64,000 bases of DNA from Eledone cirrhosa. Its lineage: Eukaryota. A program made the position numbers and the translations under genes. The stretch spans positions 267,096,001 to 267,160,000 of the forward strand of contig OZ024742.1 of the NCBI GenBank assembly GCA_964016885.1. The letters are read 5' to 3'. Within the stretch, counting starts at the first letter, position 1; each line of letters opens with the position of its first letter. The notes below the pieces were generated by a model that worked only from the letters and a program-made list of their open reading frames with translations, had not been told where the DNA came from and ran no database searches. This document shows positions 4,801-61,794 of the stretch, one piece after another.

Positions 4801-5076
4801 ACATATATAATAAAAAAGAAAATATATTTTTACTAGGTCTGACAGTTGGCAGGTGAACAGTGAGCTGTACCGATGAAGGGTGATACACAGAAACATTATA
4901 TATATATTTCTCTCGTCTACGATTTCACAGAACTTATGTTCGTCGATTTCAGAGACTTGACTCCTTCCTTACTTTTCGTTGCATTTCTATATTTGTTTGT
5001 TTGTTTACTGTCTCGCTCGTTCCCCCTATTTACGTGTCCCAACGGCTTTCTTAAGCTGTTGCTCGCACCAACAAGA

Positions 5077-5133
5077 GGTATATGATCTTTAAAGCGATGA
5101 AATACCAATGAAGGCTGGAAGATCACTGATGAA
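5077..5133 (+). ncRNA. Putative non-circularly permuted hammerhead ribozyme (family P1, copy 1)
   Basis: GGTA-TA^-TGATCTT-TAAAGCGAT-GAAA-TACC-AATGAAGGCTGG-AAGATCA-CTGATGA-A; GGTA/TACC and TGATCTT/AAGATCA pair perfectly. Confidence 0.7.
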
Positions 5134-5596
5134 GGACTAATTTTATTCATATGTAACCCAATTGCAACCACACAGCATGCCATTTTTTCATATATTTATC
5201 TATTTTCCTCTGCTGTGACCCGTCTGTTTCTTTCTTACTGCTTCCCCTTTCTCTGTATCTCTCACTTTCTTTTTACCCCCTCTGCCAGTCACTCTCTCGG
5301 CTAGTCTCTTCCTCACACTTTCGCTCACTCACTCGCTGTTACTCCCTCTCCATCACTTCCTCCCGTTTGACCTGTGCGAAATCCTTCCCTCACTCACATT
5401 TCAACCAGGTTGGATGGTCTTTTTTTCTCTCGTCTACAATTTCACAGAACTTATGTTCATCGATTTCAGGGACTTGACTACTTCTTCCTCACTTTTCGTT
5501 GCATTACCATATTTGTTTGTTTGTTTACTGTCTCGCTCGTTCCCCCTATTTACGTGTCCCAACGACTTTCTTTAGCCGTTGCTCGTACCAACCAGA

Positions 5597-5653
5597 GGTA
5601 TATGATCTTTAAAGTGATGAAATACCAATGAAGGCTGGAAGATCACTGATGAA
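5597..5653 (+). ncRNA. Putative non-circularly permuted hammerhead ribozyme (family P1, copy 2)
   Basis: Same motif 520 nt downstream of copy 1, with one linker substitution. Confidence 0.7.
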
Positions 5654-5665
5654 GGACTAATTTTA

Positions 5666-5714
<49 letters not shown>

Positions 5715-5718
<4 letters not shown>

Positions 5719-6125
5719 TATTGTATTCAGCCATGTAGAGCGAAATTTTCTTTTCATTATTTGAATATAGCAAAGCCGGTCATTAATCACTCGTATACTG
5801 ACTGGCAAGTCTGCAGATATGCAAAAGTTGCTGATCAGTGGGTCTGCTAATATGCAGATCTGACTGATCAACCAGTCTTCTAATATGCAAATCAGGCTGA
5901 TCAGTCACTGTATATTTTAGAAAATATATATTTTCACTAGCTCTGACAGTGAACTATACGTTTGAAGGGTAATACCCAGAAACATTAGTGTCTGCAGTTC
6001 TCTTGACATGCCAAAACAAGAGCAAGAATGAGGGGCTCATTCCAGTGACATGGCTTTAAAAATGAGGTTTGTTCGCATAATTGCAAACGAATCGAACACA
6101 AGAGCAATAATGAGGGGCTCATTCA
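5715..6125 (+). mobile_element. Octamer-containing HHR element with degenerate HHR (~5951-6000); related fragments at 4800-4897 and 13940-14093
   Basis: Three 33-bp TATGCAAAT..CTGATCAG units; GAACTATA-cgtttga-AGGGTAATACCCA-GAAA-CATTAGTG-TC-TGCAGTTC. Confidence 0.6.
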
Positions 6126-6131
6126 TTATAT

Positions 6132-7150
6132 ATGTACGGTCGTTACATTGAAGACTGTATCGGAGCCACGACCCTCACCCGAGAACAGCTCGACTCCTTT
6201 CTCTCCTTCTTCTGCTCCTTCCACCCCTCCCTCCACTTCACCACCTCTATCTCCACCACCCACGTCCACTTCTTAGACATCTCCGTCGCCTTCGACCCCT
6301 CCCACCACTCCCTCGTCACCTCTGCCTTCTTCAAACCCACCGACTTCCACTCTTACCTCGACTTCACCTCTTCCCACCCCACCCACACTAAACACTCCAT
6401 TCCCTACTCCCAACTTCTCAGGATCCGCCGCCTCTGTAGCCGTGATGCTGACTTCGAGTCCCAGGCCCTTTCCCTAGTCAGCCATTTCATCCGCAAAGGT
6501 TACCCCCCCCCCTCTCGTCTACACCACTCTCACCCGCGCCCGTGCTATCCCCCGCTCCACCACCCTCACCCCACGCCACCGCACACCCACCCACCGTCTC
6601 CCCTTCCCCATCACCTACCACCCCTCCACCTTATCCCTCCACCGCACCATCCGCCGCCTCTTCCGACGCCTCCAGTCCGACCCCTCCACCTCCCACATCT
6701 TCCCAACCCCACCACTCCCCTCCTTCAAACGCGCACGCAATTTCCGCACCCTCCTCGTCCACAGCTCCCTACCCCCAACCCACGCTCTGTTCCCCCCCGG
6801 TTCCTTTCCCTGTTTTAGGCCCCGCTGCAACACCTGTTCCCACATCACCAACACCACCACCTTCCAGGGTCCCAACGGCCACTCTCTCTCGGTCCGGCAT
6901 GCCTTCCGCTGCACCTCCTCCAACCTAGTCTACGGACTTCGCAGACAGACGGGACGTCGCCTGGCGGACCGAGTCACGGAGCACCTCCGGGATATTCGTC
7001 TCGGGGGCAGTTCCCCCATCGCCCGCCACTTTGGTGGCCCTGGACATTCCGCACGCCATCTCACAGTCTGTGGCCTACTCCAGTGCCACGGAACCCCCGC
7101 CAATCGCCTTACGGTCAAACAACGAACTATCTTCATCTTACAGACACCCC
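6132..7150 (+). pseudogene. PLE reverse transcriptase C-terminus plus GIY-YIG endonuclease, frameshifted
   Basis: ORF 6132-6818 N-terminal half matches PLE RT motifs; frame shifts in the poly-C run near 6505. Confidence 0.8.
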
Positions 7151-8669
7151 CCCCCCCGGCCTGAACTCCCCACCCTTATTCCTTTAGCCTTCGACCGCCC
7201 CCCCACACTTATCCCCCACTAACACCACTAACACACCCCTCCTTTTCACCGCCCACCCCACAACTAACAATACTAACACCTCCACTCCACCCCTCATCTG
7301 ACCACCCTTCCCCAACTAACATACTAACATCCCTTCCCTCCCCTCTTCTCCTCCTCCCCCTCCTTATCACACGCACACACCCACCGGCACATATATACAC
7401 GCGCTCTCACTGAACACACACCCTACTACCACCACTAACCCTCACCCCCACACCTCTCACCCCACACCTCCATCCCACCACCCCGCAACTAACCTCACTA
7501 ACACCCCCTAACCCCAAGCACACAAACACACGCACCCACTTACACCACCCACCCCACACGCAACTAACATCACTAACACCCCCAACCCCACGCACACGTA
7601 CCCACACACCCTCGTACACCACCAACTCTACACACCCTACCACCACTAACCCCCACTCACACCTGCATTCAATCCCTCCCCACCTCCCGTATACTAACAC
7701 CCACTAACACCTCTTCATCAAACTACACACACACCAGTACACCACACTCCCTCCATAGAACCACACACACCCTTCTCTCCCCGCTCCACCCACACCCTCG
7801 CTCCACACTCACTCATCCCACTAACACCCCTACTAATACACACACACACACCCTCCTCACTCCAACTTTCACACCTACCCATCCTAACCCCTTTACCATT
7901 CCACCGACTGCTGCTATGCTCTCTGACCACCTCCCAGCACAAACAGACCACAGCACTCCCACTGCTGACCACTTCCTGTTGCGGGCGCACCCCACATCTC
8001 TCCTCTACCGACCATCGCTTCATGGAATACCCACACGCAGAAATTGACCAATAACCAATCCACTAAACATCTTCGGAATTTACCAACTTTTCAACCATCC
8101 TCTTACGTAATCACCTATATAACTCCTCCCTCACACACACCCCCAATTCTCCACACGCCACCTACACCCACAACAGGCTTAAACCCCACACACACGTGCT
8201 TGCCACCACATATCTACACCCTCAGCCTCCTGATTCCTCTCCCCCCTCTATCCACACACGCACAGACACTCCGACCCCCCCCACACACACCTCTTCCTGA
8301 ACATGCAACCCTGTTCTTCCCCCAACCCTTACTTTCACATACACACACACACACACACGCACACCTACACACACACACCACCTTCAGCCCTCCCCGCTCG
8401 GACACCCCGTCTCCCTCTCCCCACTCCACCCGCCACCACCCCTACACACCCCACACCCTTCCACCACCTGTTTAACCCCCTTTTAATTTTAGTTTATTTT
8501 GATCATGCCTTTATTTTTAAATTTATCTCATTCCTTGTATTTTGATCATGCTTTATTTTTATTTTTATCTTTATTTTTTATTTTTTCATTCGCACCGTTT
8601 CCTTTCGCTATATGTCTCTCCACCACTCCCCTACACACCCTTTGAACTCTGTTCCCACACACTTCCCAC

Positions 8670-8700
8670 CTGAGGAAGGGCTTATGCCCGAAACGTCGTC
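8670..8700 (+). ncRNA. Hammerhead core in the Neptune-like 3' region (stem I not evident)
   Basis: CTGAGGA-AGGGC(TTAT)GCCC-GAAA-CGTCG-TC. Confidence 0.6.
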
Positions 8701-8910
8701 CCCCACCAACACCCCACTCTCAAGAGCGTGAAATTAATAAACATTTGTTGTACTGCCTCTCTGTTTTGTCCCTGTTCAAATTTTTCCATTATATATATAT
8801 ATATATATATACATAAATGTGTATAACTGATTTAGAGCACTCAACAAGCTACTGGAGTAAATATTCAATGATATTAAATAAATGGAAACTATATTTAGAA
8901 AACCATATTT

Positions 8911-8973
8911 ATTTTATTATATATATTTCAGGGTTAACCAAGACAACATTGCTACGCTTTCATCAGATAAAAT
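8911..8973 (-). ncRNA. Minimal type I hammerhead ribozyme in PLE 3' region
   Basis: ATTTTAT-CTGATGA-AAGCGTAGCAA..TTGGTTAACCCT-GAAA-TATATA-TA-ATAAAAT. Confidence 0.75.
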
Positions 8974-10054
8974 ACAAAATTTGTTTTATAAATAGAGACA
9001 TACCCATGGAAATCGTACCTTATCGGTTGGAAATACACTGGATAGTGGAAATATATTAGGGATTATTCAAACTTATGTGTGAATGTGCAAATGAATATGT
9101 AAATAATTGAAAAACAACCGTTTATTTAAATGACACTGGAGAAAGAGAGAGAGAGAAAGATATAAGTGGATAAAGGTAAAAAATATTACGAGAGAGATAG
9201 AGAGAAGAAATTAACAAGAGGATGAATAAAACTCATATAACGTTAATTTGGGGGAAATATATTCTAAGTATATATCTAATAGTACGTATATTTACGATTA
9301 ATTAGTTGTTTAAAATTCTTTTCTAATATAATATTTTCTGTTATAAGTAGATAGAAAAATAAATAGATAGAAAAATAGATAGAAAAATAAATAAAAAATA
9401 AATATATAAATATATAAATAGATAAATAAATAAATAGATGAGTATATCGTGTTATAGATAATTGTTTTAATGAGTTATGAGGGATATTGGTTTTGTATTT
9501 AATGTAAGTAAATATTAAGTTAAATTAAATTAAGTTAACTGAGATAATAAGAATATTTATATTCATATATTTTAAAATGGGAAGATACGGAAAAAAAACT
9601 CTGGATTTGTTTATTTATTCGTTAGTGTGAGACAATTTTGTCAAAATAAGTATAAATGTGGAAAGATATATTTAGCCAGAATGAGTTAGTGGTTATAAAT
9701 CTAATAAAATATATTGAACAAATATTAAAAATTCGAGAAAAGTTTAAAAAAAATAATTTATAAGAGATAAGTAATCTTTAAAAAATAAGTAATTTATAAA
9801 AATAGATAAAAAATTAAAGAAATAAAAAATTAAAAGTAAAGAATTAAAAATTAAGATTAAAATTAGAATTCAAATTCAAATTCAAATTTAAATTTAAATT
9901 AAAAAAGAATTTAGAATTATATATGTATATATTTTATGAAACTTTAAGAAGTGAAATTATCTCAAATGTTATAGATATGATTTATAGATATCAATATATA
10001 AAAACCAAGTGGATAAGATTGTTATGGAAATAAGAAGAAATATTATAAGTGTAA

Positions 10055-10460
10055 TTATAATTTATATATAGTTCTAAATGTTGAAATCAGGCGATGTCTA
10101 CAAGAACTAAATAAATTCGTTCTTAGATTAATAGAGTTCTTACATTTAAGAATGATAAACATTTCCTGAACACACAATTTGCAGAATCTAGATAAAGCTG
10201 TGTTCGGTAGGCGGGTGCTTCCGAAATTATTTCCCAAGTTAATGAATAGTCCATATTCTTGCATTTTAAGTTCCATATCAAGTTTGAAAGAGAAGTTGAA
10301 GATTTTTTATCAAATCTTTGGAAAGAGCATTTGTGATTATTCCAGCGACTTTTAAATTCTGTAGAAGTTGCACCTACATAGTTAAATATATTATCACTGG
10401 TTTTAACTGTACATTTATAGACCATGTCCTTATCTAAACACTTATTTTGTAAAGGACAGT
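10055..10460 (-). pseudogene. GIY-YIG endonuclease domain of a PLE, one frameshift
   Basis: ORFs 10123-10425 and 10055-10276 join to give VYK..YVG..R..NH..CKLC..E..IN.R..CRH. Confidence 0.85.
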
Positions 10461-11824
10461 TTAATTTAATTCTACCGAAACAGAGCTTTATCTAGATTCT
10501 GCAAATTGTGTGTTGAGGAAATTTATTTCATACTTAAATGTAAGAACTCTATTAATATAAGGACGAATTTATTTAGTTCTTGTAGACATCGCTTGAATTC
10601 AACATTTAGAAATATATATACATTATAATTACACTTATAATATTTCTACTTATTTCCATAACAATCTTATCCACTTGGTTTTAATGTATTGATATCTCTA
10701 AATCATATCTATAACATTTGCTATAATTTCAATTCTTAATGTTTGATAAAATATATACATATATAATTCTAATTTTTTAAAAATTTTATTTTAATTTTAA
10801 TTTTAATTTTAAAAGTAATTTTAATTTTAATAATTTTTAATTCTTTATTTTTATTTTTTATTTCTTTAATTTTTTTATCTATTTTTAAAAATTACTTATT
10901 TTAAAAAAATTACTTACCTCTTATAAATTATTTTAAAAAAAGTTTTCTCGAATTTTTAATATTTTTTCAATATCTTTTATTAGATTTATAACCACTAACT
11001 CATTCTGGCTAAATATATCTTTCAACATTTATACTTATTTTGACAAAATTGTCTCATACCAACGAATAAATAAATAAAACGAGAGTTTGTTCCGTGTCTT
11101 CCCATTTTAAAATATATAAATATAAATATTCTTATTAACTCAGTTAACCTAATTTAATTTAACTTAATATTTACTTACATTAAATACAAAACCAATATCC
11201 CTCATAACTCATTAAAACAATTATCTATAACACGATATACCCATCTATTCATTTATTTATCTATTTATTTATTTATTTATTTATGTATGTTTCTATCTAT
11301 TATTCTATGTATTTATTTTTCTATCTACTTATAACAGAAAATATTATATTAGAAAATAATTTTAAACGACTAATTAATCGTAAATACACGTACTATTAGA
11401 TATATACTTAGAATATATTTCCCCCAAATTAACGTTATATGAGTTTTATTCATCCTCTTGTTAATTTCTTCTCTCTATCTCTCTCGTAATATTTTTTTAT
11501 CTCTATCCACTTATATTTTTTCTCTCTTTCTTTCTCCAGTGTCATTTAAATAAACGGTTGTTTTTCAATTATTTACATATTCATTTGCATATTCACACAT
11601 ACGTTTGAATAATCCCTAATATATTTCCACTTCCAGTGAATTTCCAACCGATAAGGTACGATTTCCATGGGTATGTCACTGTTTATAAAACAAACTTTGT
11701 ATTTTATCTGATTAAAACGTAGCAATGTTGTCTTGGTTACCCTTGAAATATATATAATAAAATAAATATGGTTTTATAAATATAGTTTCCATTTATTTAA
11801 TATCATTGTATATATATATATATA

Positions 11825-13930: not shown

Positions 13931-14097
13931 GTTTGCAATTATGCACACAACCAAGAATAGGGTGATCATTCTACTGACATCGCTTTAAAATAAGGCATAT
14001 TTGCATAATTGCAAACGAATCGAATATTATTATTAATATTCGAATAACTCAGATTACATTTATTGTATTCAGCCATGTAGAGCGAAATTGTTTATAT

Positions 14098-14160: not shown

Positions 14161-15047
14161 TAATTCTAAGCATTAAAAACTAGATCCCTAAAATCATTGC
14201 GAGCGATAACTAAAATAAGTTATCGGGACAGAACGAATTGGAAGGGGAAAGTAAACAAACAACATGGTAGTAATGCAACGTAAAGAGAGAAAAAGAGAGA
14301 CAAGTCAATGAATCTTGTGGACTTAAGTCCCAACAAATCAATCGACGGGAAGAGGCAGACACGTCCGAGCCACGCGAAAAGTGAGAGAGAAAAGGATTTC
14401 ACACAGGAGAGAGCTTGTTCGGACTTAAGTCCACAAGATTCATTGACTTGTCTCTCTTTTCCGCTCTTTACGTTGCATTACTACCCTGTTGTTTCTTTAA
14501 TTTCCTTTGTCCCGATAACTTAATTTAGTTATCGCTCGCACTGATTTTAGGTATCTAGTCTTTAATGCGAAGAATACCAATGATAAACAGCAGACTACTG
14601 ATGATGGACAGTCCCGTTTCTCAGTCTATTTTCATTCATATGTATCACATTCGCAACAACGCAGCACAACATTTTTTCATTCACATATATTTTTTTCCCC
14701 TCGCGGTGGTTCGTATTTTTTCTATCACCTTACAGCTATCCTCTTTCTCTCTCCCCCTTCTCTCTCCTTGTACCTCTTGCTTTCTTTCACCCCCTCTGCT
14801 GGTCACACACTCTCGGCTGGCCTCATCCTCACACTTTCACTCACCCACTCTCTCACTTCCTCCCGTTTGACCTGTGTGAAATCCCCTTCTCTCTCACTTT
14901 TCGCGTGGCTCGGACATGTCTGCCTCTTCTCGTCGATTGATTTGTTGGGACTTAAGTCCACAAGATTCATTGAGTTGTATCTCTTTTCCTCTCTTTTCCT
15001 CTCTTTACGTTGCATCACTATCATGTTGTTTGTTTACATTCCCCTTT

Positions 15048-25810: not shown

Positions 25811-25952
25811 TGAAATATCAACGAGTCTATAATTACCGTTTTTTCTTACGGCCTATTTATGTGTGGGTCATTTTAACGGCTTGATTTTATACACCCGGCA
25901 GAAAGCGGTACATCTACTTCTACTTGGATTTATGTCTAGTAGGTTTGGAAAA

Positions 25953-26032
25953 GCTGTCTGAAGAGCTATATCTTTCCATTGGAAATTCTCTGAATTTCCA
26001 ATCTTTTGATTAGCGAAACCGTCGGTGACGCC
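25953..26032 (+). ncRNA. Hammerhead with extended stem II (cleavage triplet GTG here, GTC in the mirror copy)
   Basis: GCTGT-CTGAAGA-GCTA..TTGGAAATTC(TCT)GAATTTCCAA..TAGC-GAAA-CCGTCGG-TG-ACGCC. Confidence 0.65.
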
Positions 26033-26102
26033 ATTAGAAGAGGTAAATATTTAAATCGTATTTTAATTTATTTAAAAGATTGTTTAATGTTTACTTGTTC
26101 CG

Positions 26103-26236
<134 letters not shown>

Positions 26237-26558
26237 AATTATGAGTAAATCTTGGTTGTGTACCGACAGCCCAGTATGCAGATTGGAGCACTCGACGAAT
26301 CACGCACGTTGGTTTGTTTACTCCGGAGTAATGTAAAATATAAGTCAAATATGTAAAATTTGGCTTCGTTTATTATAAATTATAGATATACTGCTATATA
26401 TATTTAGGTGACAGCCATCATTGGCTGTGACCTCTTCAGGCAGTCCGAATTGGTGTGGGAAAGACAAGGTACAAATGTTGTTGAAGTGTGTTTTACACCG
26501 TCAATACATCGATATGTCCAGTTCCTGGTTGTGTTGTTATTTCTCTGAGAAACTGAAA

Positions 26559-26596
<38 letters not shown>

Positions 26597-26645
26597 TATA
26601 TATATAATCCTTATCGAGCCCTCTTCGGATTTTTGTCTTCACGAT

Positions 26646-26701
<56 letters not shown>

Positions 26702-26815
26702 TTCCAGTTTCTCAGAGAAATAACAACACAACCAGGAGCTGGACATATCGATGTATTGACGGAGTAAAACACACTTCAACAACATGTGTACCTTGTCTTT
26801 CCTACACCAATTCGG

Positions 26816-26870
26816 ACTGCCTGAAGAGGTCACAGCCAATGATGGCTGTCACCGAAATATATATAGCAGT
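26816..26870 (+). ncRNA. Minimal type I hammerhead (mirror copy 26390-26444 has GAAA>TAAA)
   Basis: ACTGC-CTGAAGA-GGTCACAGCCA(ATGA)TGGCTGTCACC-GAAA-TATATA-TA-GCAGT. Confidence 0.85.
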
Positions 26871-27025
26871 ATATCTATAATTTATAGTAAACGAAGCCAA
26901 ATTTTACATATTTGACTTAATTATTTTACATTACTCCGGAGTAAACAAACCAACGTGCGTGATTCGTCGAGTGCTCCATTCTGCATACTGGGCTGTCGGT
27001 ACACAACCAACATTTACTCAAAATT

Positions 27026-27121
<96 letters not shown>

Positions 27122-27676
27122 AGCGGAACAAGTAAACATTAAACAACATTTTAAATAAATTAAAATAAGATTTAAATATTTACCTCTTCTAATGCCGGGA
27201 CCGACTGTTTAGCTAATCAAAAGATTGGAAATTCAGAGAATTTCAAATGGAAAGATACAGCTTTTCACACAGCTTTTCCAAACCTACTAGACATAAATCC
27301 AAGTAGAAGTAGATGTACCGCTTTCTGCCGGGTGTATGAAATCAAGCCGTTAAAAAGACTCACACATAAAAACGGAAATTATAGACTCGTTGATATTTTA
27401 TGTTACGAGAAATAGCAGCATGATACAACATTTTTTCTCTACATTAAAGGAGAATTCAAATAAATGATATAGATATTCCACTAGGTAGTAAGTACCCACG
27501 GAAATATATATGGTGTCTATAATAGTGGTTGTTCTATGGTACTAATTTGAGATACCAGAACTGTAAATATGAGCGGAACAAGTAAACATTAAACAATCTT
27601 TTAAATAAATTAAAATACGATTTAAATATTTACCTCTTCTAATGCCGTGGCCGACGGTTTCGCTGATCAAAAGATT

Positions 27677-52512: not shown

Positions 52513-52641
<129 letters not shown>

Positions 52642-52693
52642 AAATGGAGTGCTGCGTGGTTGAACATGGGTTACATATGAATAAAATTAGTCC

Positions 52694-52750
52694 TTCATCA
52701 GTTATCTTCCAACTTTCATTGGTATTTCATCGCTTTAAAAATCATATACC
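52694..52750 (-). ncRNA. Permuted hammerhead, family P1 copy 3
   Basis: GGTA-TA-TGATTTT-TAAAGCGAT-GAAA-TACC-AATGAAAGTTGG-AAGATAA-CTGATGA-A. Confidence 0.6.
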
Positions 52751-52772
52751 TCTGTTTGGTGCGAGCAATAAC

Positions 52773-53789: not shown

Positions 53790-55159
53790 AGAGTATTGAA
53801 GTTTGCTTGAAGCATTGTGGAATAATAAATAAATATCTTTAAGTCGTTTGGACTCTTCGACAATGCAAATGGGTAAATCTCCGGGTAACAAGATCCGGTG
53901 GTGGAGAGAGAGATGTAAGTGGGTGTACGTTGGGATGCGTGGTGTGTAAAGATGTGTAAATGTGTAGAAGAAAGAGGGGAAGAGTATAAAGGATAAAATA
54001 AAAATAACAACACAAGAGAGAGTTACCTTGGGAGAGATTTAATAGTCCCTATATATTTCGGATTCACATCCATCAACTGGGGTTTTTTCCGGGGTAAAGG
54101 TTGTCTGTCGGACAAGTGCGAAACGCATCCTCCGCTGTTTGTTGTTTTGAATATCTGAGGTATTCGGCAGAGCGCGCGTAAGGCGTATCGGGCAGTCTCT
54201 GAGGGAGCATGCGTCTCTGAGGGAGCTGTTGCCTACGCACATACGTCGTGTATAAGATAGAATGTGACAGGTGCAACCAATACTACATAGGTAGCACAAT
54301 CCGACCTTTGCACATCCGGATCAAGGAACACACTAAAACCAAGGCCTCGTCTTTCCGGAAACACATAGACAAATGCGGAAACAAAGACGGAAGGCCCACT
54401 GTCACAATTCTAGCGACTGAAAGAAACGTCGGCACGTTACGTATCAAGGAAGCACTTTTTATCAAACGCCTGCAACCGCAAATAAACAACCGATTAGAGA
54501 GAAGCGAAATGAGATGGCTGGTTTAAGTTAACAAACGATGTAGCAACACACAACACACGCACACACAAACGAGACAACTATACACACACACACACACACA
54601 GTAGCATTCCACCATACGAACATACTACGCTGCCAATACAGAGGAACAAGGCAACTACACCCGCACACACACACACACTCAAGCGAGACAACAACATACG
54701 CACACACACACACAGTCACATTTAACAAACAGACAGAGAATGGACTGACAGCTAGCGCCACCCCACTCCCTCATTCGGCCACTGACCTCTGCTCGACCGA
54801 CGCCATTTCACGCGCACGCGCGCTCTGCCGAATACCTCAGATATTCAAAACAACAAACAGCGGAGGACGCGTTTCGCACCTGTCCGACAGACAACCTTTA
54901 CCCCGGAAAAAACCCCAGTTGATGGATGTGAATCCGAAATATATAGGGACTATTAAATCTCTCCCAAGGTAACTCTCTCTTGTGTTGTTATTTTTATTTT
55001 ATCCTTTATACTCTTCCCCTCTTTCTTCTACACATTTACACATCTTTACACACCACGCATCTCAACGTACACCCACTTACATCTCTCTCTCCACCACCGG
55101 ATCTTGTTACCCGGAGATTTACCCATTTGCATTGTCGAGACTTCCAAACGACTTAAAGA

Positions 55160-55165
<6 letters not shown>
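53790..55165 (+). mobile_element. 5'-truncated PLE (Penelope/Poseidon-like) with upstream inverted copy of its 3' end
   Basis: Arms ~53830-54179 / ~54817-55165; GIY-YIG ORF between them; HHR-like CaGtTGA-TGGAT(GTGA)ATCC-GAAA-TATA-TA-GGG at ~54912-54949. Confidence 0.85.
54248..54526 (+). pseudogene. GIY-YIG endonuclease domain (open frame, but 5'-truncated element)
   Basis: VYKIECDRCNQYYIGSTIRPLHIRIKEH..H..C..LRIKEALFIKRLQPQINN. Confidence 0.9.
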
Positions 55166-55213
<48 letters not shown>

Positions 55214-59695: not shown

Positions 59696-60534
59696 TATAT
59701 ATATATAAAAGCACCAGTAATTTCTACGTAACGCCATTATCCACATTTCCACATCTTTAGCTACAGTAAACTGGCTAATACAACATCAATGACAGAGGCA
59801 GTTTAACAATGCAAGCATAAAAATAACAGAAACGAGTTTGAATTTTAAAAAGAGCCAAAGCCTATCAAGGGCAAACACAGCCCACAGAGCTCCCATAAAG
59901 TATTGACAGAGCTCCCATAAATTATTGCACATTATGATTTCCAAGTAAACTTTATTAAACGAAAACAGAAATTAATAACAAAGTCCTATAAACATTTAGA
60001 CAGACAACCACATTAGATAATAACAACACGTGGATACTAAAAATTCCTAGACAAAGTACTAATTTTCCAATTCTCTCCAGTTCAATGAGTACTCATAGCA
60101 TCCCGATTCACAACGAATAATAACTGAAGATACATACTCCACGAGTCAGATCTCACAAACGGGTGAGCTGAGGTGCAAGGGTGTATGTACGTCCAGGTGA
60201 GTGTGAATATGGACAAGCATGTATAATAACCTCTGTATATTTATGTATAATTGTGTATATGTATGCACAAAGTAAACGGAAACAACAAAGCAAACAACAC
60301 AGTACAATGAAGAAGTACGTTAGCATGTCACAGTAGTCCTTCATAAGAAGATAAATTGAGAAAAAACTGAAATAGAAAGATTGTGACGTATGTATATGTA
60401 TGTGTATGAATAAGTATATATGGATGGTAAGTGTATGAATATATATGTGCATGAGTAAATGTATATACAAAGGTGTATGGATGGTATGTGTATGCATATG
60501 AACGTACATGCATATAAGCGTACATAGACACATG

Positions 60535-61575
60535 ATCTACTGCGGGTTTCTAATGTTTCGACGCATTAAAGACAATTCAGTGTGTTAATAACTTCATGAT
60601 GTTATTAGAGAAGGAAAAAAAACAAAAAAAAGAGACGATAGCGAAGAGAAAGAAAATAAACAGAATGCAAAAAGAAAACATAGCGACAGAAAGGGGGAAA
60701 CACGAGACAGTAGTTCATGTATGTAGCAGTAACCAAGGGGAGAGATGAAGGTTTAAAAAGGCGGCTGAGAGTAAGCTCTGAAACCTTATTAACAGCATGA
60801 GAGAGAGCAAAGAGAAAGACGTCTGATCAGGATAGATGTATTGTCTTTAATGCATCGAAACATCTATGACCCACAACAGACAACTGAAGAGGGGAATTGT
60901 CTTATGTTTGTGTTTCCCTAACATTTCTAAACACTCTTTATTAGTAACCACACAGGACTTCGTCCCTTTTAATTATTGTTAATTTATTGCTGTGACCTCC
61001 GTTCTATTCTCTCTATCTCACTTGTTGGTATCCCGCTCTTGGGCTGAAGTCCTACCATTTGGATTAACTCTTTTCCTTCCCCCTTTCTCCCTCTTTCTTT
61101 CTCTCTCCCTCTCTCTCTACTACTCACTTATACTCTTTCTCTCCCACCATCTATACCCTTTCTCCCCCTCTCTCTTTACTCTCCTACAACTTCCGTTTTC
61201 CTTCGTCTCTCCCTCTTTATGCCTGTTCTCGCTAAAATGAGACGTGTTTCTCTTTGCTCTCTCTCATGCTGTTAATAAGGTCTCAGGGCTTAGTCTCGGC
61301 CGCCTTTTTAACTTCTTCATCTATCCCCTTGGTTACTGCTACATACATGTACTACTGTCTCATGTTTCCCCCTCTATATCGCTATGTTTTCTTTTTGTCT
61401 TTGTTTATTTTCTTTCTCTTCGCTATCGTCTTTTTTTTGTCTTTTCCTTCCCTAATAACTTCCTGAAGTTATTAACGTACTGTATATAGATGTATTGTCT
61501 TTATTGCGTGAAAACATCCGAGACCCACAGCAGACAACTGAAGAGGGGAACTGTCTTATGTTTGTGTTTCCTTTG
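60535..61575 (+). mobile_element. Retrozyme-like element family P3: inverted segment (60535-60824) plus 654-nt partial tandem
   Basis: ATAGATGTATTGTCT at 60832 and 61486; 60535-60824 mirrors ~61240-61535. Confidence 0.8.
60832..60891 (+). ncRNA. Putative non-circularly permuted hammerhead ribozyme (family P3; second copy 61486-61545)
   Basis: ATAGATG-TA^-TTGTCT-TTAATGCATC-GAAA-CATCTAT-GACCCACAAC-AGACAA-CTGAAGA-G; 7-bp stem III, 6-bp stem I. Confidence 0.75.
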
Positions 61576-61794
61576 TATATATATATATATATATTATTGG
61601 GTAAAATGACAGTAGACTGGACTGGTGAGATTCCTTCAAAGATTTATTATAGCAAACACTATGCATATTTCAATGACCAGTTTCCGTAGGTTTCTTGTGA
61701 CAACATCAGGTGTTTATTGTATAAAAGTCATATAATAAAGGAGTAATGGAATCAACAAACCTAAATGAATATATATATCTATATATATATATAT

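Follow-up and report, generated by a model that had tools for sequence, protein, structure and literature searches.

A non-coding tandem mobile element of Eledone cirrhosa with a predicted four-way-junction SGC hammerhead in each unit and a Penelope-like insertion pattern

The 64,000-nt window of Eledone cirrhosa contig OZ024742.1 analyzed here (all positions below refer to it) contains an insertion at 4908–5669 of the forward strand that consists of a tandemly repeated non-coding sequence. How is such a sequence mobilized, and does each of its units encode a ribozyme? We conclude with moderate confidence, on the basis of a structural model and the anatomy of genomic copies, that it is a non-coding tandem mobile element in which each unit carries a covarying SGC four-way fold predicted to be self-cleaving, and that it probably spreads as a circular RNA copied by the reverse transcriptase (RT) of a Penelope-like element (PLE).

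Repeat comparison delimits the insertion as 1.46 tandem units of a repeat designated family A, truncated on the 5′ side at about monomer position 342 and ending about 70 nt past the second predicted cut, where it runs into TA. The initial annotation had described a direct repeat with cleavage sites after 5082 and 5602, no ORF, and flanking TA tracts, and each of these features is present. The spacing between the predicted cuts is exactly 520 nt, and the repeat copies (4907–5155 and 5424–5675) are 93% identical across 252 nt. A short TA run at about 4897–4907 forms the 5′ flank and an (AT)23 tract at 5669–5714, the likely target site, forms the 3′ junction; because of such TA tracts, no target-site duplication is readable at family-A loci. 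The predicted cut-to-cut monomer (5083–5602, forward strand) is pyrimidine-rich, has 43% GC and is non-coding, with stop-to-stop frames of at most 118 aa within the insertion and ATG frames of at most 74 aa on 21 circularized family-A monomers. A hidden ORF was rejected, as the long frames of family B do not stay in frame; across 13 family-B monomers, just 9 of the 110 indels have a length divisible by three. A rod-like global fold of the 520-nt monomer was also rejected (z = 0.09). The two repeats of the insertion differ by 5.7%, and this copy is therefore not recent. Three contig runs on one sample over 4815–5665 gave family-wide variants only, plus TA loose ends at 5152. Outside the ribozyme, the block CTTCCTCCCG-TTTGACCTG at about 5360–5385 is conserved across subfamilies and is a candidate promoter or RT-binding element.

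A permuted hammerhead had been proposed for each unit, and both units indeed keep its elements: GGUA-UA/UGAUCU (the slash marks the predicted cut, after 5082 and after 5602), GAAA-UACC, and AGAUCA-CUGAUGA. Stem II, however, is not a hairpin; it is modeled as a splinted four-way structure accompanied by a helix bridging stems I and II, and the predicted ribozyme is larger than first described, beginning about 46 nt upstream of the cut. Ribozyme 1 (5036–5137, forward strand) has the order splint-S-G-C, with core letters and helices intact apart from one mismatch in helix X. Its splint (5036–5066) is composed of IIa′ (GUCC, 5036–5039), hairpin P (5040–5047 with 5054–5061) and IIb′ (UCGC, 5063–5066). 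The 5′ strand of helix X (5068–5073) pairs with 5113–5118, linking the ends of stems I and II, and five of its six pairs change on both sides. Block S (5077–5088) contains the stem III 5′ strand GGUA, U16.1 (5081), A17 (5082), after which the cut is predicted, and the stem I 5′ strand. Block G (5094–5106) contains IIb (GCGA, 5094–5097), U11.1 (5098), GAAA (5099–5102) and the stem III 3′ strand UACC, and block C (5120–5137) contains the stem I 3′ strand AGAUCA, CUGAUGA (5126–5132), A10.1 (5133) and IIa (GGAC, 5134–5137). Ribozyme 2 (5556–5657, forward strand, cut predicted after 5602) likewise has an intact core, with two G-U wobbles in IIb and one mismatch each in P and X.

The blocks are thus ordered S, G, C from 5′ to 3′, the non-circular order of type SGC. 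Since the upstream strand pairs with both halves of stem II around the extra hairpin (GUCC-GGAC in IIa and UCGC-GCGA in IIb), a four-way junction results, and helix X joins the two linkers. Stem II is not continuous: its two strands share only pair 10.1–11.1 (78% paired), and the remainder pairs with the upstream splint. Two other pairings were rejected: a stem II formed directly by the strand that follows CUGAUGA and the one that precedes GAAA would have just one pair, and pairing between GGAC and the 5′ strand of stem I fails in families D and E. Rfam at its gathering score gave no match in the 64-kb window. The most apt description of this structural model is an SGC hammerhead whose chain is re-opened in stem II and which contains a four-way junction.

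Covariation was evaluated in an alignment of 37 rows hand-picked among 91 distinct motifs, with truncated and inverted copies excluded. Over seven helices and 35 pairs, 92.5% of cells are paired and 23 of the 35 pairs show changes on both sides, with compensatory changes in all seven helices. The covariation value is 0.441; shuffles gave 0.195 (0 of 500), and slid partners no more than 0.108. These figures overstate independence because the 37 rows represent about seven to eight subfamilies and the structure was derived from the same sequences. Stem I has changes on both sides in 4 of its 6 pairs and stem III in 2 of 5, with 94.6% and 95.7% of cells paired, respectively. Of 163 distinct motif copies taken without hand-picking, 147 retain UH together with stems I and III; the splint score is at least 14 out of 15 in 101 of these 147, versus 1.8% when the upstream part is shuffled. 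Position 17 is non-G in 152 of 154 copies and position 7 is variable, both as expected of hammerheads, and U16.1 is present in 35 of 37 rows. Because the search pattern itself contained CUGANGA and GAAA, only UH and N7 count as independent evidence for the core, which is kept between families that are just 58–65% alike overall. The weak point of the fold is pair 10.1–11.1, paired in 29 of 37 rows; the consulted part of PMC3088659 reports natural hammerheads with a one-pair stem II, including a U-U mismatch at that place. No published hammerhead with such a four-way junction one pair from the core was found in the literature searched. On this model, we consider self-cleavage by the fold quite probable.

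Type-SGC hammerheads (HRIMA-1 and variants) are described by Eckert et al. (2023, PMC10085705, main text) from metatranscriptomes only, with none from genomes of known organisms. The fold described here shares with them the S-G-C order, the crossing of stems I and III as a pseudoknot, the short linker between stems I and II, and the core letters. Helix X corresponds to their stem I-II helix, except that its stem-II-side strand comes from upstream and not from the 3′ end. Unlike in the type of Eckert et al., blocks C and G are not directly paired as stem II, there is a fourth strand, and the chain is opened within stem II, a contrast that rests on the main-text description, as the supplementary alignments of PMC10085705 might hold splinted variants. 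The splinted form also differs from those metatranscriptomic examples in residing in an animal genome in thousands of copies.

The G+C block pattern has 17,036 exact matches in the 3.0-Gb genome and none for the reversed control, and the motif is therefore not a chance occurrence; a similar density follows from 600 kb of stretches spaced evenly over the genome, in which three such motifs lie. DNA searches with the three elements of the window, which define families A, B and C, yielded 4887, 3091 and 1635 first-look candidates, respectively, numbers that are not copy numbers. Families A and B are 65% identical over 531 nt and B and C 58% over 408 nt, alignments that indicate homology of the three families along the whole monomer. 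Periods are 497–523 nt in family A, mostly 538–564 nt in family B, and 624–637 and 654 nt in others; the 624–637-nt monomer subfamilies (loci L142, L165 and L169) arose via internal duplication of about 130 nt. The family-B relative in the window (14167–15040, forward strand) combines an inverted 5′ piece with a forward piece, and its 527-nt period, noted previously as equivalent to that of family A, is real (5–89 with 532–626 of the element), but the copy has a single forward motif (core at 14598) whose GAAA is short of one A. The 654-nt period of the family-C relative (60527–61578, forward strand), which also has an inverted 5′ piece and predicted cuts after 60840 and 61494, is likewise real (9–94 with 663–748), but the first motif (cut after 60840) has no upstream strand because the inversion junction sits there. 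A short 5′-truncated family-A-like copy on the reverse strand (52630–52768) lies between TA tracts and has partly lost its splint.

The ends of genomic copies, which the initial annotation had proposed tabulating for circular permutation, were collected with two queries. With the full element as query, all 30 loci (28 distinct places, a query-biased set) end 64–73 or 115–121 nt past the cut, the longest being 1357 and 1512 nt. When the query was anchored in mid-monomer, the 3′ end lay at +68 to +73 or +116 to +121 in 28 of 30 loci, which span the cut; the 5′ ends are scattered over the monomer, and six of the 30 have 5′ inversions. Both 3′ end points are CAUAU sites leading into TA, and the 3′ ends of families B and C are mostly 60–125 nt beyond their cut. 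Insertions hold up to 2.9 units. Among 52 loci (60 minus 8 duplicates of places already counted), TA follows the 3′ end in 43, and 5′-junction sequence is common to only 4 of 1326 locus pairs. The copies are therefore not permuted at their 3′ ends, which are fixed, although their 5′ ends vary; as the fixed 3′ ends lie just beyond the motif, the ends are related to it. This is a Penelope-like insertion pattern rather than free circular permutation, and partial tandems, 5′ truncation, inverted 5′ copies, tails and microsatellite targets are all traits of PLE insertions as described in PMC8557442. The earlier proposals of a retrozyme-like element and of mobilization by a Penelope-like RT are thus supported, the former by tandem non-coding monomers with a hammerhead motif in each unit and the latter by the insertion anatomy. 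The fold structure and the PLE-type mobility are both well supported.

Nearly all sampled copies extend across the cut, and none of them terminates there; consequently, the template runs through the cut site, which must have been re-joined, jumped or left uncut. In 21 two-repeat insertions, the repeats of each insertion carry the same allele at 291 of 320 polymorphic cells (91%), as compared with 67% after permutation (0 of 2000). In the same insertions there is no bias of alleles between 5′ and 3′ repeats except in the last column, at the TA junction, and the number of private shared variants, 10 against a control mean of 2.8 and a control maximum of 11, is not decisive. This allele sharing favors one monomer read repeatedly, as a circular or re-read template predicts, and is also compatible with template jumping or homogeneous master dimers. 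Circle-templated reverse transcription of more than one unit has been proposed for PLEs (PMC4209133, as far as consulted). Given the predicted fold and these patterns, we lean toward a template of circular RNA.

An unlikely alternative is that the ribozyme cuts but the monomer stays linear, with the RT starting near the 5′ end of a cut monomer and then jumping to the 3′ end, either of that molecule or of a sister. Identical partial tandems would then form without a covalent circle, the end positions and allele sharing do not separate a circle from a jump, and the four helices would hold the cut ends together even if unligated. Insertions of 2.6–2.9 units, however, require repeated precise jumps, and known animal retrozymes have abundant circular monomers according to the consulted part of PMC7229834. 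It is also improbable, slightly more so, that the fold is a hammerhead-derived 3′-end signal for a PLE RT or endonuclease that cuts slowly or never, the templates being uncut read-through transcripts of multimeric masters. Consistent with such a signal, every 3′ end lies just beyond the fold, pair 10.1–11.1 is weak, and eight of nine Xenopus retrozyme dimers remained uncut in vitro (bioRxiv 10.64898/2026.07.22.740005, as far as consulted). But families 58–65% alike retain CUGANGA, GAAA, U16.1 and a base other than G at position 17, while position 7 is free, the pattern demanded by catalysis, which argues against a mere end signal; moreover, there is no fixed allele pattern distinguishing 5′ from 3′ units, which master dimers would leave. 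That the copies are merely 5′-truncated 3′ ends (pseudo-LTRs) of an autonomous PLE, in keeping with their PLE-like anatomy and the frequent 5′ truncation of PLE insertions, is very improbable and largely refuted, since the previous monomer lies upstream of the motif for up to 2.9 units, the 52 loci have no common upstream sequence, and whole monomers are non-coding and homologous across subfamilies.

If the template is a circle, the life cycle might proceed as follows. A copy with two motifs would be transcribed from some promoter, and cutting after UH in each motif is predicted to free the 520-nt monomer. Its ends, held by helices IIa, IIb, X and III, would be ligated by the ribozyme or RtcB, so that the rest of the monomer (420 nt in the predicted circular form) would become the loop of helix IIa. 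A PLE endonuclease would nick a (TA)n tract, and the RT would prime at CAUAU 64–73 or 115–121 nt past the junction; these 3′ end positions are observed in genomic copies, and the mechanism is our proposal. The RT would then cross the junction backwards and drop off at variable points; some events would involve more than two rounds, and some an inversion. To be able to launch a new monomer, an insertion would have to reach two motifs, as that at 4908–5669 does.

From which PLE could such an element have arisen? In the available portions of PMC8557442, Naiads (Craig et al., 2021) are reported without a canonical hammerhead, with just ‘HHR_core’ or ‘HHR_half_core’ marks and the second half on either side. 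When the consensi of that source were inspected by eye, Naiad_Obim and Naiad_Ovul showed the same splinted SGC fold about 110–120 nt before the 3′ end. Their helix sequences are different, yet one loop word and one linker word recur in families B and D. Among the 54 Naiad consensi of File S5, at least 16 contain permuted hammerheads, a lower bound from excerpts around CTGANGA words that cover 55 of 62 CTGATGA places and places 4–13 of three other words. Again by eye, the splinted SGC form is present in nine consensi (Obim, Ovul, three Acropora records and four others), one further consensus has the SGC order with a stem II that is not clearly readable, and the remaining six are of type CSG and include a long extra helix (three from Nippostrongylus and three more in the nematode part). 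The elements described here also resemble Naiads, as presented in the same portions of PMC8557442, in their partial tandems, inverted 5′ copies and TA targeting, and their two 3′ ends about 45 nt apart may be compared with the 30–40-bp Naiad tail; unlike Naiads, the family-A element has no ORF. These sequence comparisons point to the 3′ end of a Naiad-type PLE, which carries the same fold, as the likely source of the element. The broader proposition that Naiads end in non-circularly permuted hammerheads, splinted SGC in cephalopod, coral and other lineages and CSG in nematodes, with family A as a non-autonomous, circle-forming offspring, is one we favor by a little.

In the E. cirrhosa genome, the Octopus Naiad-type ribozyme motif pattern had no match, no Naiad ORF joined to an SGC motif and no intact Naiad were found, and the Naiad remnants are short and 66–79% alike. 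Twenty remnant loci, when extended, contained decayed RT pieces and 3′ ends too decayed for a readable ribozyme. An RT motif gave no genome match, a CxC-region motif gave five, three of which are Naiad-like remnants, and an N-terminal endonuclease was absent from the 20 of 150 GIY-YIG matches that were extended. The 20 long-ORF PLE loci checked have a C-terminal endonuclease and are Neptune-like or Penelope-like, and the motif matches near them resembled separate insertions (L237 alone was inspected in full). At loci L231 (reverse strand), L232 and L233 (both forward), PLE ORFs run without interruption for 938, 844 and 1096 aa and have GIY-YIG after the RT; by motif, we take them to be Neptune-like, and they are candidates for the recent helper RT. 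Family-A copies, which differ by about 6%, are younger than the Naiad remnants, and uninterrupted ORFs of PLEs with a C-terminal endonuclease are present; a Naiad origin is thus likely, and for the recent helper RT there are candidates.

Animal non-LTR retrozymes are a known class, and what is new here is the wiring of the ribozyme and the link to Naiads; the element is non-LTR-retrozyme-like, with a new hammerhead wiring, and probably Naiad-derived. In the consulted portions of PMC7229834 and bioRxiv 10.64898/2026.07.22.740005, such retrozymes share with it non-coding tandem monomers with one hammerhead each, a GC content below 45%, dispersed copies and a proposed mobilization by PLEs. They are, in contrast, defined by type I (CGS) hammerheads, a definition from which the S-G-C order of family A departs, and the 2026 pipeline searched type I models only (Li, Clavereau and Pollet, bioRxiv 10.64898/2026.07.22.740005). 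Monomers here are about 500–650 nt, as compared with 150–450 nt in 2020 (PMC7229834) and 51–972 nt in 2026 (bioRxiv 10.64898/2026.07.22.740005), and circular RNAs have been demonstrated for animal retrozymes (Cervera and de la Pena, 2020, PMC7229834), whereas for the present elements they are a prediction. The minimal type I hammerheads of PLE pseudo-LTRs, in the portion of Cervera and de la Pena (2014, PMC4209133) consulted, also lie near the element 3′ end and have a proposed role in circular templates; they have a weak stem III and need dimers, unlike the fold here, whose stem III is full and for which activity as a monomer is predicted. No publication describing hammerheads of type SGC or CSG from animal genomes, from retrozymes or from Naiads was found in the search, which covered largely non-subscription literature.

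If these readings are correct, animal genomes would contain tens of thousands of active-type ribozymes whose wiring the six-permutation scheme does not include, and the orphan SGC and CSG ribozymes would have a genomic home in Naiads. Hammerheads with a non-circular permutation, described until now from environmental sequences of unknown origin, would be placed in an animal genome at very high copy number, and a stem II four-way junction would be added beyond the three-block scheme. It would also be explained how Naiads multiply seemingly without the ribozyme of other PLEs, as standard descriptors are blind to the S-G-C order. The fixed internal 3′ ends would provide a small protein-free substrate on which to test the circular-template model of PLE retrotransposition.

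Other repeats share these surroundings. In the 600 kb of evenly spaced stretches (L081–L140), type I (CGS) hammerheads of many families gave 31 matches, as compared with none in shuffled sequence; in many of them stem III is palindromic and has no loop, which suggests action as dimers. Immediately 5′ of the family-A insertion, a piece of another repeat with a decayed type I hammerhead (4846–4898, forward strand; intact form in L243) is broken at TA, with loose ends at 4898, and a second decayed copy of it lies at about 5930–6000; the type I hammerhead of this repeat has a palindromic stem III. A 5′-truncated, broken PLE ORF at 6114–7164 has what we presume, from its motifs, to be RT-thumb-like and endonuclease-like segments; two pieces of it had no significant Pfam match, and a minimal type I hammerhead follows at 8670 (about 8660–8710). 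Long inverted-repeat structures at 8858–11816, 25856–27370 and 53825–55170 are probably inverted PLE-type insertions. One short repeat end abuts the TA tract beside the family-A (5715–5750) and family-B (14058–14090) insertions and also beside L011, and TA tracts thus gather several repeat families.
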